NCBI GenBank assembly: GCA_964363045.1
Contig: CAYIGM010000001.1
Span: forward strand, 1 to 36,389
From: an uncultured Candidatus Saccharibacteria bacterium
GTDB lineage: Bacteria > Patescibacteriota > Minisyncoccia > GCA-002772825
Length of the DNA stretch: 36,389 nucleotides
Reading direction: 5' to 3'
Every line of letters begins with the position of its first letter. Within the stretch, counting starts at the first letter, position 1. The notes under the pieces are model-generated. The model saw nothing but the letters and a program-made list of their open reading frames with translations. It was not told where the DNA came from and ran no database searches. Made by a program: the position numbers and the translations under genes. Positions 15,757 to 29,154 of this stretch are shown piece by piece.

Positions 15757-16932
15757 TCACAGAAACTTGCCGGCAAAAAGAGCCTCCATCAGAAGAAACA
15801 CGTCTTTCTCCTCTTTCATGGTCTTTGATAATTTAAAAATTTTATCCAGCGACTCCGAGGAGATTCTATTCAAGCTGAAACTTCTGCCTAAGACGGTAAA
15901 TCGGGAGAAAAAATCATCCTGAACACATCCGGAAAATTCTTCAACTATCTTATCGTTGCCCGCCAAAAATAAATTTTGAGGCAACGGCGCAATCTCCGCG
16001 ATCTTCTCCACCGCTTCTTTAAAAAAGCCGGCCCATTCATTTTTCGCTTCGCCAATCGCTTTTGAAATTTTATCTGCGGCTCTCTCTTCAGAGTGGCCTT
16101 TTTCAAGACGAGAAAAAATTGAAGTCGTCTCTTTGATGAGAGTATTCAAAGCTTTGCCTATTTTCCTCAAAACAAAATTTTTTCCCAATGGAAAAGAGAT
16201 GGTCTCTTCAAGTATCCCTTTTCTGATAAGCGATATATCTGTGGCTTCGCCGGCGACATCAACAAATAAAAATCCTTCGTCATTGCCTACTGAACCTTTC
16301 AAAATATTGAACGCCACAAAGGGAAAAGTGCGAAATATTACGGGCGTTCCGGCAAAACTCTCCCGAATTATGTCTTCTATTCCTTCTTTAATCTTCGTCT
16401 TGCCCATACTCATATAAACATAAATGTCCAATTGGCGCGCTTTCTTGCCCAGAGGTTTTGCCGTGTCATAGCCGTTTAGGACCGACTTCATAATATTGTG
16501 CTCAAAAAGAGACAGCTCCTCGCCTGGAGAGATGGCGTCAAGCTCTTGCGCGTATGTTTTTTTAAATATCGCGGCTTCATCTCTTATCAAGCCGTCAAGT
16601 AATTTTTCATCAATCTTAAAGGACTGGTCTTTTCTGACTTTTATTATCCGGGTTTGAGAAACATGCAATAAAGAACTTAGGACACAAAACGCGAAATCCG
16701 GAGACTGGCGAGCCTTGCCCCTCAAAGACTGAACCGTCTTCTTGAATGCCTCTTCCAGATATTTATGAAATAAATGCGGATTAGCATCCTCTCTGAATTT
16801 TATATCAATATTAACGCTTGCCAAAATTTCAATTTCATTCTTATGGCTATTGCGAACCAATAAGCCGCCGACCGAACCGCTCCCTATATCAAAAACGGCG
16901 AATATTTTTTCCTTTTTGGTAAACAAAAACAT
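15757..16932 (-). CDS. FtsA/PilM-like actin-fold protein (degenerate motifs)
   Basis: VFDIGSGSV (phosphate-1), FVDVAGEATD (phosphate-2), FPLGKN, LAGN; start at 16932 follows TGTTAAAAT; alternative start 16950. Confidence 0.75.
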   Translation of the reverse strand: MFLFTKKEKIFAVFDIGSGSVGGLLVRNSHKNEIEILASVNIDIKFREDANPHLFHKYLEEAFKKTVQSLRGKARQSPDFAFCVLSSLLHVSQTRIIKVRKDQSFKIDEKLLDGLIRDEAAIFKKTYAQELDAISPGEELSLFEHNIMKSVLNGYDTAKPLGKKARQLDIYVYMSMGKTKIKEGIEDIIRESFAGTPVIFRTFPFVAFNILKGSVGNDEGFLFVDVAGEATDISLIRKGILEETISFPLGKNFVLRKIGKALNTLIKETTSIFSRLEKGHSEERAADKISKAIGEAKNEWAGFFKEAVEKIAEIAPLPQNLFLAGNDKIVEEFSGCVQDDFFSRFTVLGRSFSLNRISSESLDKIFKLSKTMKEEKDVFLLMEALFAGKFL

Positions 16933-24940: not shown

Positions 24941-25093
24941 AGACTATAAGCTTATATTTTATATTTTATTTTGCAAATTTTATAAACGCAAATATGTGAA
25001 TAAGGCAAATTCATCGGCTGGCAAAGATTATCAAAATATGTTTCTATAATATCAGAAAGCTGTTCCATTAAAAATATCAAAGGAGGCGCGGAA

Positions 25094-25609
25094 ATGAAAA
25101 AATCCATTATAGTCTTAATTACACTTTTGATTATGTTTATGGTTGCCACAAGCGTCGGGGCAGAAAACGAAAAGAAAGAAAAAGAAGATATGTTCATAAT
25201 CATCGCGCAAGACGAATTCAAGGGCGAACCATCCGTTGAATGCCGAATGAACATATCCGAACATGGCCGGCGATTAGTTATAAATTCATATTCAGGAGAG
25301 CATAAAGAAGACCAGTTGATTCAAACAATAATCCTTTCAAAAAGCGGCGGGAAAGGAACAATCATCTCTTACCATAACAAAGAAAAAGACCGGGCTTCTG
25401 TGGAAACATACAATATCTTTGAAAACTGGTGCCTTCCTTATTTCAAAGAGGGACCGGCGCCGGAAGAGATAAAAGAATTTATAGATCTTTTTTACAATCA
25501 CAATGATAAGCCAAAATTAAAAGCGGTCCTGCAGGACTCAAAAGACCCAACACCTGACAGACAAGAAAAGAGTGAGGATTTGACGCTCACCGGGCAATTT
25601 GAAATATAA
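25094..25609 (+). CDS. hypothetical secreted protein
   Basis: AGGAGG SD, MKK signal peptide ending VGA, downstream terminator. Confidence 0.8.
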   Translation: MKKSIIVLITLLIMFMVATSVGAENEKKEKEDMFIIIAQDEFKGEPSVECRMNISEHGRRLVINSYSGEHKEDQLIQTIILSKSGGKGTIISYHNKEKDRASVETYNIFENWCLPYFKEGPAPEEIKEFIDLFYNHNDKPKLKAVLQDSKDPTPDRQEKSEDLTLTGQFEI

Positions 25610-25643
25610 AACTAGAACTCATCTTTTTTCTTAACCTTTTTTA

Positions 25644-25670
25644 AAAACCCCGGAAACTATCCGGGGTTTT
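25644..25670 (+). terminator. intrinsic terminator (possibly bidirectional)
   Basis: AAAACCCCGGA-AACTA-TCCGGGGTTTT. Confidence 0.8.
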
Positions 25671-25682
25671 ATATTTGCGCGC

Positions 25683-25707
25683 TATGTCAACCTGCCACGT
25701 TGACATA
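25683..25707. repeat. left 25-bp palindromic site (recombination-site- or REP-like)
   Basis: TATGTCAAC-CTGCCAC-GTTGACATA; inverted copy at 26504-26528. Confidence 0.9.
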
Positions 25708-25720
25708 TTACCCCCAGCTA

Positions 25721-25749
25721 TTGACATTTATAGCGCAATCTGCTAACCT
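25721..25749 (+). promoter_or_regulatory. sigma70-type promoter of the beta-barrel gene
   Basis: TTGACA-17 nt-TAACCT with extended TGn. Confidence 0.7.
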
Positions 25750-25835
25750 ATTTTAAGATTTAAATTTGAATATAAAAAAGATTGGCGCATTGAGCGCACA
25801 GTTCTTAACAATCAAGCAAAAATAAGGAGGCGCAA

Positions 25836-26429
25836 ATGAAAAAACTGTCTATTCTGTTTTTTATCGCGATTTTTCTTGTCGCGGGCGGGGTGATGTTTTA
25901 CCCCGGCTCGGCAGGGGCCGAGACCTTCCTTTCTGCTGGCATCGGGGCCGAGCAGATAACATTCAGCAACTGCAGTGGGGACTGCGATTTGCTTAAAAAC
26001 AACTCGGAGGCGGTCATCAGTCTCCGGATGGGCAAGTACTGGAACAGACCACTGGCGATACTGCCGGTGGACATAGGGGTGGCGGGAACCATAAGTCAAA
26101 CCGGTCACATGCACGTGGACAACAAAGGCATAGACGAGCGGACCGGCGACATCTCATTACTCCTCCGGTACCGTTTAGAAAAGTTCTCGCTCTACGGCGG
26201 GTACGGAGTCGGCAGTGTGATTACAGCCACCAATCTCGGAGACTGCAACCACGGCGCCCGCTTCCTAACCGCGGGGGTAGAGGGGAAAGTATCGCCACAA
26301 TCGGCGACATGGTACATGGAGTACCGTCAATACGGTACTCACCATGACTTTATGGAGGGCGCGAGTGAGGAGATAACCACTCGCGAACACGTGAAGTCCA
26401 TGACCGCGGGTGTCAGGTATACTTTTTAA
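25836..26429 (+). CDS. outer-membrane beta-barrel-like protein (8-stranded OmpA/OmpX-type)
   Basis: signal peptide (AGA), alternating amphipathic strands, YGGYGVG, C-terminal AGVRYTF beta-signal; TAAGGAGG SD. Confidence 0.75.
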   Translation: MKKLSILFFIAIFLVAGGVMFYPGSAGAETFLSAGIGAEQITFSNCSGDCDLLKNNSEAVISLRMGKYWNRPLAILPVDIGVAGTISQTGHMHVDNKGIDERTGDISLLLRYRLEKFSLYGGYGVGSVITATNLGDCNHGARFLTAGVEGKVSPQSATWYMEYRQYGTHHDFMEGASEEITTREHVKSMTAGVRYTF

Positions 26430-26448
26430 CCCGCGATACTGACGCTTC

Positions 26449-26488
26449 AGCGCCGCTATATGTGGTAAACATATAGCGGCGCTTTTTT
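26449..26488 (+). terminator. intrinsic terminator
   Basis: AGCGCCGCTATATGT-GGTAA-ACATATAGCGGCGCT-TTTTT. Confidence 0.9.
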
Positions 26489-26503
26489 ATTATCCCAACA
26501 CAT

Positions 26504-26528
26504 TATGTCAACGTGGCAGGTTGACACA
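26504..26528. repeat. right 25-bp palindromic site, inverted relative to the left site
   Basis: TATGTCAAC-GTGGCAG-GTTGACACA; 24/25 match to the reverse complement of 25683-25707. Confidence 0.9.
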
Positions 26529-26533
26529 AGTAG

Positions 26534-26561
26534 TTGCATTTGAATAAAAATAAGGTAGAAT
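26534..26561 (+). promoter_or_regulatory. probable tRNA promoter
   Basis: TTGCAT-16 nt-TAGAAT upstream of tRNA-Ala. Confidence 0.55.
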
Positions 26562-26585
26562 ATTTTAATAAGCCAGCTAGCGTGC

Positions 26586-26661
26586 GGGCCGGTAGCTCAT
26601 CTGGTAGAGCGCCTCATTTGCACTGAGGAGGTGGCGGGTTCGAGTCCTGTCCGGTCCACCA
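26586..26661 (+). tRNA. tRNA-Ala (anticodon UGC)
   Basis: 76-nt cloverleaf; acceptor GGGCCGG/CCGGTCC with G3:U70; anticodon arm CCTCA-TTTGCAC-TGAGG; TTCGAGT T-loop; encoded CCA. Confidence 0.98.
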
Positions 26662-26712: not shown

Positions 26713-27021
26713 ATGAACGAGAACAAAACACAAAATACATTAATCTGGATTATTCTGGCCATCAATGCCTTAACTCTTATTTTGATAATAACCCTAACCA
26801 TTGTCGGCTGGAACGCTATCACCCAAAAAACCGACCAATTGGACGGGGTGACAAAAGAAGAACTCCCGGCTCAGCAGCAAGCCCAAAAAACGCAAAAAGC
26901 GCCGACTGGCACCGAACAGCAATCTCCTGAAAATAAAACGACTCACGGCCAATGCGGCGACAGTGTTTGCGATACCGTTGAAAAAGCCAATTCCGGCATC
27001 TGTCCGCAAGACTGCAAATAA
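26713..27021 (+). CDS. small membrane-anchored protein with a C-terminal 4-Cys module
   Basis: N-terminal TM, Q/T-rich linker, CGDSVCDTVEKANSGICPQDCK. Confidence 0.85.
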   Translation: MNENKTQNTLIWIILAINALTLILIITLTIVGWNAITQKTDQLDGVTKEELPAQQQAQKTQKAPTGTEQQSPENKTTHGQCGDSVCDTVEKANSGICPQDCK

Positions 27022-27054: not shown

Positions 27055-29154
27055 ATGTTTTCATCTAAAAAAGGTTTTATCACTGCCCAGATAATTGTTC
27101 TGGGAATTATTTTTACCGCGATAATCGGCGCCATTGGATTCGGAATTTACCATTTCTCAAAACCTGATGGTGGCAATCCGGCGGAACAAAATTACAATGG
27201 CAATACTTATGACAATACCAAAGAAAATGATTGCGGCGCGGATTGCAGTAAAGAACAAAGCGGTAAAAAGCAGAATAATGCCGTAAACAGCGCGACCCAC
27301 GAAAGAGAAATTAATTTTCATCAGCTCGCTACGGGTAAAAAATTCAGTAATATTCTAAAACTTTTTAATCCGATTATTGACGAGCAAAATAGAAAACTTT
27401 ATGTTGTTGGGTCAAAAACCAACTATGTTGGCGTGGTTGATGTGGATAAAGACGAATTGATTGATGTATTCAACATCGGCGTTCCCGGCGGATTTCTGAT
27501 TTTCAATAGCCAAAAACTTTATTCTTATGATTTTGCCGCGAACAAATGTTATCAGATTGACCCAAGCCAGAAAAAAGCGACGGAAATTTCCATAGATACC
27601 TGCAAAACCATTGTGCCAAGCAAAGGAAAAGATAAGTCCGTAAAATGGGGCAATTATTCTTTCCAAGAGACCGGGTATCAATCTTTTGCTGACGGAACAA
27701 CCGGCTTTACAACAAACTGGAATCAAAATTTAAATGGAGCTTACGGAATTATTGAAATATATGATTCGGCAAACAATAAAAAAGGCGAAATAACTCACGG
27801 TCCGGACGCGTTATACTTTACAATAGACCAAAAAACCGGCAAGCTTTATACGACCAACACAGGAGACGGCTCTATTTCCATATTTGATTTAAATAAATTA
27901 GAATCAACGAACTATTGCCAAAACAACAGCTGTAAAATAAAAGACATTGACATTGGTAATTCAGCCGACGAAGTAATAGCCGATTCTTCCGGTAATTTAT
28001 ATGTAAGAAACAGGTTGGGGGGAAGCGTGATTTATAAATATAACTTGAATTCAAAATTACTTACAATTATTGATAATGAAAATCATGTTAATGGCGGAAT
28101 CGGTATGTGGCCGACGGATATGGAATTAAGCAAAGATGAAAAAAGATTATATGTCTTAAGCCATTATGGCGCGCTAATAGATGTAATTGACACAACGACA
28201 AATAAAGTCACAAATAAAATAAAATTTGAAACTTCATTAAAACCGCGCACTGACAGTATCTCAGCGATGGCCGTGGACAAAAGCCGAGATAAAATTTATG
28301 CCGTTTGGCCGGAACTTGGGGTGATTGGCGTGGCTGACGGGATAAACAATAATGTCTTAAAGACAATAGATTTGACAAAATACGGATTTGATAAATCAAA
28401 AGCCGCCAATGCTGGTCCCGGCCTTGTAAATCTTACCGTCAACGAAAAAACCAATAAATTATACGCATATTTGTACAACGAGCAAAAATTACTGGTTTTT
28501 AACGGCGATTCTTTTACCAAAGAAAATGACGCTTCTTTGTCGCTCAAAAACAAAAAAGAATTATCTTTAATGAGCAATGATGATAAATCGGCGCTATATT
28601 TGGGAAACAAAATCATTGACCAAAATTCTCTAAAAGAAACGGGAAATTTCTCCAAGGGCCAAAGTGTTATCGCATTCAATAATAAAAATAATGCGGTTTA
28701 TCTGTCAGATATGTCTTCATTGGGAGCGGGCAAATCTCAGGAAAAAGTTTATGAATTTGACAATAATATTCTAACTAGAGCATGGGTGCTTGATGAAATC
28801 GGGAGTATAGCATCGCGATTTTCCTTTGATTTTGATAAAAATATCTTCTATACGGCTTATTTTGAAAGCGGAATAATAAAACAATATAGTCTGGATTCCG
28901 GAAGTAAGCCGAGTGACGCAAGCTCGTCATCCTCCAATCAGGTTCAGCAACCGACGAATAATCCAAGCGCGTCAAGCACTGATTGCGACCTTAATAAAGA
29001 CGGGAAAATTGATGAGATAGAGCAAAAAATGTGTTCAACCAAAGGAAGCCAATCTTCCGGGGGACAAGCGCCAAGTGGCCAAACTAAATGCGGCGACGGC
29101 GTCTGCGATGCCGTTGAAAAAGAGACGGGGGCTTGTTCGCAGGATTGCAAATAA
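27055..29154 (+). CDS. surface beta-propeller (YVTN/YncE-like) protein with a pilin-like N-terminus and C-terminal Cys module
   Basis: KKG|FITAQ plus hydrophobic helix; repeated KLYV/KLYTTN/RLYVL blades; S-rich linker; DLNKDGKID EF-hand-like loop; CGDGVCDAVEKETGACSQDCK. Confidence 0.85.
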   Translation: MFSSKKGFITAQIIVLGIIFTAIIGAIGFGIYHFSKPDGGNPAEQNYNGNTYDNTKENDCGADCSKEQSGKKQNNAVNSATHEREINFHQLATGKKFSNILKLFNPIIDEQNRKLYVVGSKTNYVGVVDVDKDELIDVFNIGVPGGFLIFNSQKLYSYDFAANKCYQIDPSQKKATEISIDTCKTIVPSKGKDKSVKWGNYSFQETGYQSFADGTTGFTTNWNQNLNGAYGIIEIYDSANNKKGEITHGPDALYFTIDQKTGKLYTTNTGDGSISIFDLNKLESTNYCQNNSCKIKDIDIGNSADEVIADSSGNLYVRNRLGGSVIYKYNLNSKLLTIIDNENHVNGGIGMWPTDMELSKDEKRLYVLSHYGALIDVIDTTTNKVTNKIKFETSLKPRTDSISAMAVDKSRDKIYAVWPELGVIGVADGINNNVLKTIDLTKYGFDKSKAANAGPGLVNLTVNEKTNKLYAYLYNEQKLLVFNGDSFTKENDASLSLKNKKELSLMSNDDKSALYLGNKIIDQNSLKETGNFSKGQSVIAFNNKNNAVYLSDMSSLGAGKSQEKVYEFDNNILTRAWVLDEIGSIASRFSFDFDKNIFYTAYFESGIIKQYSLDSGSKPSDASSSSSNQVQQPTNNPSASSTDCDLNKDGKIDEIEQKMCSTKGSQSSGGQAPSGQTKCGDGVCDAVEKETGACSQDCK

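Follow-up and report, generated by a model that had tools for sequence, protein, structure and literature searches.

Which enzyme, if any, acts on two inverted palindromes that enclose a single gene, and did that gene travel with them? The question is raised by positions 25683–26528 of the stretch of DNA analysed here, 36,389 nt of contig CAYIGM010000001.1 (assembly GCA_964363045.1, forward strand), to which we refer as the window and whose genome, G000, from a groundwater bacterium of the Patescibacteria, comprises 587,509 bases in 37 contigs with approximately 40% GC. An initial annotation had described a cassette between two 25-bp sites with reverse-complementary centres, and had proposed for them either core sites of a tyrosine recombinase or repetitive extragenic palindromes (REPs) in the inverted arrangement of a REPIN. 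Both sites were confirmed from the sequence, with inverted-repeat arms (25685–25707 and 26504–26526) that are complementary at 23 of 23 nt and have 796 nt in between. We conclude that the two sites are very probably REPs of a RAYT (REP-associated tyrosine transposase) system, enclosing a foreign gene unique to this genome, and we hold as possible, on a more tentative footing, that the REP-gene-REP unit was mobilised as one piece.

The identity of the sites was deduced from the gene which the same motif flanks elsewhere. An exact scan that took one genome for each GTDB species gave at least 80 loci, and counts from these public loci are lower bounds. In at least 13 of them two motif copies with about 650–700 nt between them bracket an open reading frame (ORF) of 211–236 aa, and genome G307 has the same REP-gene-REP layout, its protein being 57% identical to the one from the public loci, which we call the cognate RAYT. 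Among the 310 motif-adjacent ORFs of the listed loci no other family has the motif on both sides in two or more loci, and an all-against-all comparison of motif-adjacent ORFs found no common neighbour besides the RAYT and syntenic housekeeping genes. An alignment of 16 sequences contains the histidines and the tyrosine of an HUH enzyme, with an NH(F/Y)H signature in which H73 and H75 are invariant and a nearly invariant Y100; ISDra2 TnpA aligns across the HUH region, and the profile of the 16 sequences matched ISDra2 TnpA (E 1.3e-4) and E. coli TnpArep (4er8, E 0.017) among PDB sequences. The AlphaFold2 (AF2) model of the protein (pLDDT 89.7) has as its top Foldseek match 4er8_A (E 3.9e-4, TM by target 0.60), the 'REP associated tyrosine transposase bound to a REP hairpin' of E. 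coli, followed by the IS608, ISDra2 and IS200 transposases (2vjv, 2a6m, 2xo6). The stop codon of the cognate RAYT falls within the downstream REP (...VNLAG*), and its units at L066, L079, L083, L096 and L110 have a GC content of 0.32–0.36 against 0.41–0.50 in their flanks. Furthermore, the cognate RAYT (E<=1e-45) was found in three of 11 motif-bearing and in none of 390 motif-free genomes (Fisher p = 1.5e-5, two of the three being kin). Given a flanked HUH/Tyr protein with 4er8 as its best PDB match, we read the motif as the REP of a RAYT or 'REPtron' system and not as a tyrosine-recombinase core; of the two branches of the initial annotation, it is the REP/REPIN one that gains from a dispersed hairpin repeat tied to a Y1/HUH gene.

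The sites fold as would be expected of REPs. With up to 2 mismatches allowed, TGTCAAC-N7-GTTGACA matches twice in the window, compared with a mean of 0.04 in shuffled sequences, none of 100 of which reached two. The 21-nt site is a near-palindrome of 10-1-10 with one C.C or G.G mismatch, whose 7-nt centre forms the tip; the arms of the initial description therefore hold, whereas its asymmetric 7-bp core is the tip of this near-palindrome. As single-stranded DNA, both strands of the window sites form hairpins of -5.2 to -7.1 kcal/mol (z -2.4 to -4.5) with stems of 7–9 bp, copy 1 folding at -6.2 kcal/mol on the + strand and -7.1 kcal/mol on the - strand (z -3.6 and -4.5). At least 4 extra complementary nucleotides lie directly beside the 21-mer in 52 of 109 distinct copies, against a chance of about 0.4% per copy, and these lower-stem extensions are lineage-specific and covary (CCAAGG/CCTTGG, AAACT/AGTTT, CCCCG/CGGGG, AAACA/TGTTT). 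A conserved tip on a covarying lower stem is as expected for a structure that is read by a protein. The 25-nt sites thus lie within the range of a REP, a palindrome of about 20–40 nt that can fold as a hairpin, and together they have the inverted arrangement of a REPIN (tips CTGCCAC and GTGGCAG), although a REPIN has a short non-coding spacer, which lets the whole doublet fold into one long hairpin, and occurs as a repeated doublet, and the window has a gene-bearing spacer of 796 bp in the only pair of its genome. REPs carry a conserved GTAG or CGTC tetranucleotide at one end (PMC3733652, in the part consulted); a flank profile of 109 copies contained no conserved tetranucleotide of this type outside the stem, the four copies in G000 being flanked by gcgcTA, acatTA, agcCA and actAT.

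The motif is a family with a patchy distribution. G000 contains exactly four copies of the 21-mer (reversed control, 0). Within the same class, 11 of 401 genomes have the motif, with 1–12 copies each and controls near zero: three of the four genomes of the window's genus, five of family f45 and one each of f9, f20 and f93. In the scan across GTDB species nearly all loci were labelled as metagenome-assembled genomes (MAGs) of Patescibacteria, and the matches listed include Zambryski-, Nomura-, Kaiser- and Campbellbacteria, Paceibacterota, 'Parcubacteria group' and some Saccharibacteria, the exceptions among them being one Anaerolineae MAG and one Rhabdonatronobacter isolate; viral contigs gave no match. 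RAYTs of this REP family are common in Parcubacteria-type Patescibacteria.

Some copies lie inside coding sequences or in arrays. The copy at C15:3268-3288 (L004 1501-1521), which lies in the 3' part of the mnmA coding sequence and is found also in G003 (C20:209612-209632, L012), encodes LCQRGRLT, where the same 21 nt in G001 and G002 differ strongly (DAGKGRVK and KAGKGQIN) with no insertion or deletion; judging from these aligned sequences, the repeat has overwritten mnmA coding DNA in frame. In f45 the repeat occurs as tandem 13-nt units (GTCAACGTGGCAG, two to three times) which close with an inverted arm (L031 ~2620-2669, L035 3253-3300, L039 3300-3350), and in G107 and G280 the tandem 13-nt array lies inside a conserved ORF of 662–696 aa.

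The gene enclosed by the window pair, which we refer to as the cargo gene, encodes a secreted protein that looks like an eight-stranded barrel of the outer-membrane type. It matches the outer-membrane protein (OMP) family OMP_b-brl (PF13505) of Pfam with 33.1 bits, above the cut-off of 28.7, and shares with this family the predicted eight strands, the signal peptide and the C-terminal aromatic residue. The AF2 model (pLDDT 70.7) consists of a signal helix and eight long strands, and its Foldseek matches are OmpA-TM, NspA, Ail, OmpX and OmpW (E 1e-6 to 1e-4); in the Atlas the closest clusters are OMP families from diderm phyla, a match that we take as a lead only. Omp85/BamA (PF01103) had no match in G000, a 98.9% complete assembly, and was positive in seven of 14 control genomes, namely all seven diderm controls. 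No further PF13505 match besides the cargo was found in G000.

The cargo gene is horizontally acquired. Its GC content of 0.544 (0.672 at third codon positions, GC3) exceeds that of the neighbouring genes (GC 0.38–0.46, GC3 0.37–0.51), as the initial annotation had noticed, whereas the non-coding DNA at the left end of the bracketed segment has a host-like composition (GC 0.352). It occurs in one of 41 genomes, G000, and in none of the 40 relatives; a set of 5.8 billion proteins contained two homologs, 63% and 59% identical and encoded on short contigs, and none of 598 pattern matches in JGI metagenome contigs was a relative of the cargo. No RAYT remnant was seen in the cassette, as BLASTN of 25601-26600 against all loci gave the repeat and the tRNA block only. 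The proposal that the sites enclose one promoter, Shine-Dalgarno sequence, gene and terminator held for the last three, the terminator being a terminator-like hairpin, but not for the promoter: the TTGACA/TAACCT candidate fails a consensus scan, which gave no promoter-like site between site 1 and the cargo gene.

The unit lies in a slot between pyk and tRNA-Ala that differs among congeneric genomes. Homology to G003 stops at ~24957 and that to G002 at ~25008, and both resume at 26533, 5 nt past site 2. In G003 pyk is followed by ~200 nt and then by the conserved block, probably the tRNA-Ala promoter, that precedes the tRNA gene, while the slot of G002 (L019 3087-3599, C5) contains a prepilin-like gene (N-terminus ..GFTLIELLVVIAIIG..) and a gene for a 121-aa membrane protein, both on the other strand. 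The motif is absent from this slot in G002 and G003. The initial annotation had named as evidence against itself relatives with the same gene at this locus and no sites; those examined have neither gene nor sites there. Between pyk and site 1, a 171-aa ORF with no Pfam or NCBIfam family above cut-off is likewise found in one of 41 genomes, G000. As this ORF is also unique to G000, the strain-specific DNA (~24958-26532) exceeds the bracketed unit. Among metagenome contigs, none of 119 loci has the full motif beside the tRNA-Ala promoter block; one flagged row was a fuzzy false match, the pattern used being too loose. The G003 slot also contains a long GC-rich palindrome (GGCCTGCCTCC..GGAGGCAGGC type; L018 3015-3062, C34), which may be a repeat of another family. 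Table 1 gives the coordinates.

Table 1 Features of the REP-bracketed unit and its surroundings in the window, with related features on other contigs of its genome (G000).
Feature	Position	Strand	Description
REP copy 1 (very probable assignment)	25683..25707		TA-TGTCAAC-CTGCCAC-GTTGACA-TA; hairpin with 9-bp stem
REP copy 2 (very probable assignment)	26504..26528		Reverse complement of copy 1; GTGGCAG tip; last arm reads ACACA
Further copies of the 21-mer in G000	C11:15609-15629; C15:3268-3288		In addition to the two copies in the window
Candidate promoter	25721..25749	+	TTGACA (25721-25726), 17 nt, TAACCT (25744-25749); unconfirmed
Shine-Dalgarno sequence	25824..25830	+	AAGGAGG, 5 nt ahead of ATG; read from sequence
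Cargo gene	25836..26429	+	197-aa secreted protein, OMP-like 8-stranded barrel (modelled), signal peptide, C-terminus ...RYTF
Terminator-like hairpin	26449..26493	+	15 pairs (26449-26483), then T run
Hypervariable slot	24958..26532		From pyk to conserved block, probably the tRNA-Ala promoter
171-aa ORF	25094..25609	+	Outside the REP pair, inside the variable slot
Conserved block, probably the tRNA-Ala promoter	26534..26561	+	TTGCAT-16 nt-TAGAAT; read from sequence; kept in G002 and G003; not listed by consensus promoter scan
tRNA-Ala (TGC)	26586..26661	+	ARAGORN
Cys-rich module	26951-26986; 29087-29122; C10 ~15782-16147		Direct DNA repeat
RAYT-like paralogs	C12, C8, C21, C14, C2, C19, C13, C4 (L134-L141)		

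Downstream of tRNA-Ala, a 102-aa and a 699-aa secreted protein share a Cys-rich C-terminal module (..CGD.VCD..E......C.QDCK) with a 121-aa protein encoded on C10, and the 102-aa protein has a weak match to Pfam RET_CRD.

Other genes are found between motif pairs. Among the public loci listed there are 29 adjacent pairs less than 2.5 kb apart, of which 12 contain a RAYT gene, 10 contain other genes, four are tight doublets (4–93 nt) and three have 205–381 nt in between. Toxin-antitoxin pairs are among the cargo other than RAYT, one of them of the MNT/HepT type and two HigB/ParE-like ones that enclose the L075 RAYT between them, as are proteins of 286, 293 and 303 aa with no family assigned; in G307 a GC-rich 122-aa ORF is a further cargo of a REP pair. 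Two other palindrome families bracket segments of deviating composition in G000 itself: C10:14047-16286 (GC 0.345 versus 0.402), with two secreted proteins, and C21:4698-6141 (GC 0.298 versus 0.422), with two small ORFs which we take to be BrnT/BrnA-like.

G000 is rich in RAYT-like genes, although none of them is the partner of this motif. TBLASTN identified eight, 25–41% identical to cognate RAYTs, and each of seven has its own flanking palindrome family, of which the patterns used found 2–11 copies; for the eighth, at the start of C21, no flanking pair was found and one palindrome lies in its 3' part. The TGTCAAC motif flanks none of the eight. Within the window, positions 2243-2261 are a copy of the C4-family palindrome (ACCGACGTCGGACATCGGT). 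The RAYT-like ORF of the C13 family itself contains two in-frame copies of that family's palindrome (L140 554-590 and 847-873), which encode ..QLGGDAAKLG.. and ..QLGGVAAKLV... The initial annotation had stated that the window encodes no enzyme acting on the sites; none for this motif was found there, nor elsewhere in G000. Without a cognate RAYT in the genome, the motif is an orphan REP family in G000.

Taken at this level, the locus is probably a REPIN- or REPtron-like unit, orphaned in G000, with a cargo gene in the place normally occupied by the transposase or by a short spacer. A possible mechanism is suggested by TnpA_REP and IS608-type enzymes, the biochemistry of which is established: by analogy, the cognate RAYT, acting in trans, would bind the repeat folded in single-stranded DNA. 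The RAYT tyrosine would then cut beside the repeat, the ends being rejoined, at the two hairpins, and such action may have placed the repeats, possibly the whole unit, upstream of the tRNA-Ala promoter. An inverted hairpin doublet is the presumed mobile unit in the case of REPINs, and a gene-bearing spacer could in principle ride the same reaction. The initial annotation had preferred capture or exchange of the gene over ON/OFF switching, a preference with which the unique gene, the variable slot and the other cargo found in REP pairs agree. The repeat family, its link to the Y1 enzyme, the hairpin and the foreign, unique nature of the cargo gene are shown by the data; that repeats and cargo moved together is inferred, and we regard it as no more than possible.

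A number of observations weigh against this reading. The cognate RAYT family falls below curated cut-offs, both for Pfam Y1_Tnp (E 0.0016, 19 bits versus 23) and for NCBIfam REP_Tyr_transpos (E 0.007, 16 bits versus 80). The REP copies in G000, dispersed as they are, number four, far fewer than the many dispersed extragenic copies of classic REPs, and one of them is intragenic, within the mnmA coding sequence. No cognate RAYT was found in G000, G001, G002, G003 or G011, where nothing exceeded 43% identity and the best G000 paralogs were ~35–41% identical to the cognates tested; this absence refers to a 98.9% complete assembly of G000, and MAGs often miss repeats. With no cognate RAYT in the genome, mobilisation here and now is unlikely, and the unit is probably an immobile orphan. 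In several genomes the REPtron is found at one constant position, with an RNase R gene on one side and an SMC_N-type gene on the other, which speaks more for persistence by vertical descent than for frequent movement. Site 1 does not coincide with the left end of the strain-specific DNA. We found the cassette only once and saw no cargo relative in any other REP-flanked setting, the flanks of the two protein-set homologs being outside this comparison. Finally, public contigs from runs X1, X3, X7 and X8 (3 studies) all have the arrangement of the window: the junctions were checked in Logan contigs, which drop rare inverted or excised forms, and no inversion, excision or empty site was seen in them, which is not evidence of absence. 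Joints of the form '25705 to 26505, skips 799' were considered as an empty site and rejected, as they have 22 letters on the shorter side and 7–11 other letters between, and represent tight REP doublets from elsewhere.

The main alternative is that the bracket is coincidental and the slot a hot spot, at which the REPs and the OMP-like gene arrived separately: foreign DNA would enter the slot by other routes, and the REPs would settle or persist in the two adjacent intergenic spaces, perhaps as relics of a lost REPtron, with no part in moving the gene. The cognate enzyme not found in G000 fits this possibility, as do the three different slot contents in three congeneric genomes, only one of which has the motif, and the 171-aa neighbour, equally strain-specific yet unbracketed. 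REP copies gather near RAYT genes in any case (L075, L108, L133). Two further points favour it and count at the same time against joint movement, namely that no cargo family recurs between motif pairs of different genomes in the listed loci, and that in a compact genome with short intergenic spaces neighbouring repeats must bracket exactly one gene. However, two of four randomly placed sites would lie within 900 bp of each other with a probability of only 0.018 (1.8% of placements), it is the bracketed gene that stands out in composition within the region, and the two other palindrome families of G000 mentioned above also bracket compositional outliers. Moreover, tight doublets with 4–11 nt between them in G346 have the same relative orientation as the window pair (CTGCCAC ... 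GTGGCAG). On balance we regard separate arrival as rather unlikely.

The other branch of the initial annotation, in which the sites are 9-7-9 core sites of a Xer-like or integrase-type tyrosine recombinase and the 846-bp segment is invertible or a module of the pdif kind, did not hold up and is very improbable. The formal architecture does fit, with inverted arms round 7 nt and tips that are reverse complements, and G000 has one PF00589 gene (C21:9690-10220). However, core sites require an asymmetric crossover region of 6–8 bp that sets their direction and a dedicated, linked tyrosine recombinase, features that the motif family as a whole does not show: the lone PF00589 gene is on another contig, no recombinase gene lies beside any of the four copies, and the gene that is recurrently bracketed encodes a Y1/HUH enzyme. 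The tip is asymmetric in all four G000 copies, but in 71 of 114 distinct copies it is palindromic save for an unpaired centre base and in those gives no direction, a proportion biased by the seeding pattern of the public loci, in which four of the seven tip bases are preset (T, G, C and A); the copies of relatives include fully palindromic tips, CTGCCAG or GTGCCAC. Whereas all 14 control genomes were positive for PF00589, the motif is present in 11 of 401. The single orientation in public contigs also argues against invertible DNA, if weakly, because contigs drop rare forms. The sole match to PF00239 (serine invertase) in G000 is a fragment (C11:3-233).

It is similarly hard to see the sites as the operator of a dimeric transcription factor or as a structural or insulating palindrome acting on neighbouring genes, tRNA genes among them, which we judge highly improbable. 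The dyad is near-perfect and each arm contains TTGACA, which in one G003 copy could supply a -35 box (TTGACA-16 nt-AAGAAT). In addition, in two of the four copies the distance to the 5' end of the following tRNA gene is 57–59 nt, so that the copy lies immediately ahead of the presumed promoter (tRNA-Ala, 26586; tRNA-Gln on C11, ~15687). Nevertheless, orientation and gene distance are inconsistent, one copy is within a coding sequence, the neighbouring genes have no common family, and in G002 and G003 the tRNA-Ala promoter block is retained although the motif is missing; a mobile repeat is more in keeping with the patchy distribution and with the link to a transposase gene. The placement near tRNA genes could reflect an insertion preference or an insulating role. 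As for the TTGACA arm as a -35 box, it was rejected for the four G000 copies, the fit being limited to the one in G003, and likenesses to parS, a sigma-54 promoter and dif were considered and dropped for apparent mismatches in spacing and sequence.

The least probable explanation of all is an assembly chimera, in which a foreign GC-rich fragment was joined at short inverted repeats, since, for all that the segment is a GC outlier bounded by repeats, contigs of run X3 (from a study other than that of X1) cross both junctions (25412-25749 and 26447-26632) with 0 differences, which argues against it, the host-like non-coding left part has a standard Shine-Dalgarno sequence, and repeats of 25 nt fall short of the word length that assemblies usually employ.

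Returning to the reading as a REP-gene-REP unit, its relation to known systems is one of partial likeness. In Pseudomonas and Enterobacteria, REP/REPIN-RAYT systems consist of dispersed hairpins, each type with a single-copy Y1/HUH gene flanked by it (Nunvar 2010; Bertels & Rainey 2011; PMC3390384 and PMC5581495, in the parts consulted). The present system resembles these in its inverted doublets as presumed mobile unit and in the coexistence of several RAYT/REP pairs per genome. It differs in having 1–12 copies per genome and not hundreds, some of them within coding sequences, in the lack of a conserved flanking tetranucleotide, and in the protein-coding spacer of the window, compared with about 60–70 bp in the Pseudomonas REPINs of the excerpt used (PMC3390384). 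Unlike the classic RAYT, the protein has ~215–230 aa, scores under the cut-off of the curated model and is found in a host group in which a 0.59-Mb Patescibacteria genome has eight paralogs. A REPtron is a tnpA_REP gene with flanking REPs, described in E. coli (PMC6006769, in the part consulted); the REP-gene-REP layout is common to both, as is the structural likeness to 4er8 of the motif-flanked protein in other genomes, but in the window it is an OMP-like cargo and not a transposase that lies between the REPs.

With the IS200/IS605 family (IS608, ISDra2; 2vjv, 2xm3) the system shares a Y1/HUH enzyme acting on single-stranded DNA hairpins and units of ~700 bp. Members of that family can carry passenger genes; they have distinct left and right subterminal hairpins and insert 3' of a fixed tetra- or pentanucleotide. 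In the present system there are no multiple near-identical copies of a whole element (the G000 paralogs being as divergent from cognate RAYTs as stated above), the same palindrome is found at both ends with no target tetranucleotide or distinct left and right ends identified, and the REPtron is in conserved synteny in several genomes. The pdif modules of Acinetobacter plasmids rely on tyrosine recombinases, their XerC/XerD sites being 28 bp long with a spacer of 6 bp; like the window unit, they consist of one or a few cargo genes bracketed by inverted short sites with the enzyme in trans, but in the present case a Y1/HUH transposase is associated with the site, which is a hairpin. Integron attC cassettes are likewise single-gene units whose boundaries are imperfect palindromes functioning in the form of folded single strands, with arrays beside the enzyme gene, comparable to L075, L108 and L133, and with toxin-antitoxin cassettes as common cargo. 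In contrast to integrons, no IntI, attI or Pc is present, the window cargo has its own ribosome-binding site and terminator, and the orientation of the repeats is not uniform.

REPs, REPINs, RAYTs and REPtrons are already known. What appears to be new is the host group, the density of paralogs in so small a genome, the repeats within coding sequences, and a protein gene replacing the spacer or the transposase. Full-text searches of the open literature gave no paper pairing 'repetitive extragenic palindrom*' with Parcubacteria or RAYTs with the candidate phyla radiation (CPR), although supplementary tables of RAYT surveys (PMC6006769, PMC5581495) may list Patescibacteria members. The prevailing view of REPINs, which have been described mainly in Proteobacteria, is that of non-coding passengers of a domesticated transposase. 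The present locus goes beyond that picture, with the same logic in ultra-small Patescibacteria genomes, a gene in the place of spacer or transposase, and an OMP-type barrel in a genome in which no Omp85 was found.

A wider reading, which we consider distinctly unlikely, is that the REP/RAYT system of Parcubacteria, more than a set of selfish non-coding repeats, is a gene-cassette platform, in which hairpin pairs delimit one- or two-gene units (toxin-antitoxin pairs, secreted proteins and, in the window, an outer-membrane barrel of diderm type) that a Y1/HUH enzyme excises as single strands and reinserts. If true, this would amount to integron-like capture and exchange built on a different enzyme, feeding surface and defence genes to the tiny, recombination-poor genomes of these symbionts, and the OMP-like cargo could then stem from a diderm donor or from the host. 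If the units between the repeats are mobile, Y1 enzymes would offer organisms that have few other mobile elements a way to capture genes; if they are not, the repeats would still mark variable slots that are useful for the comparison of strains.

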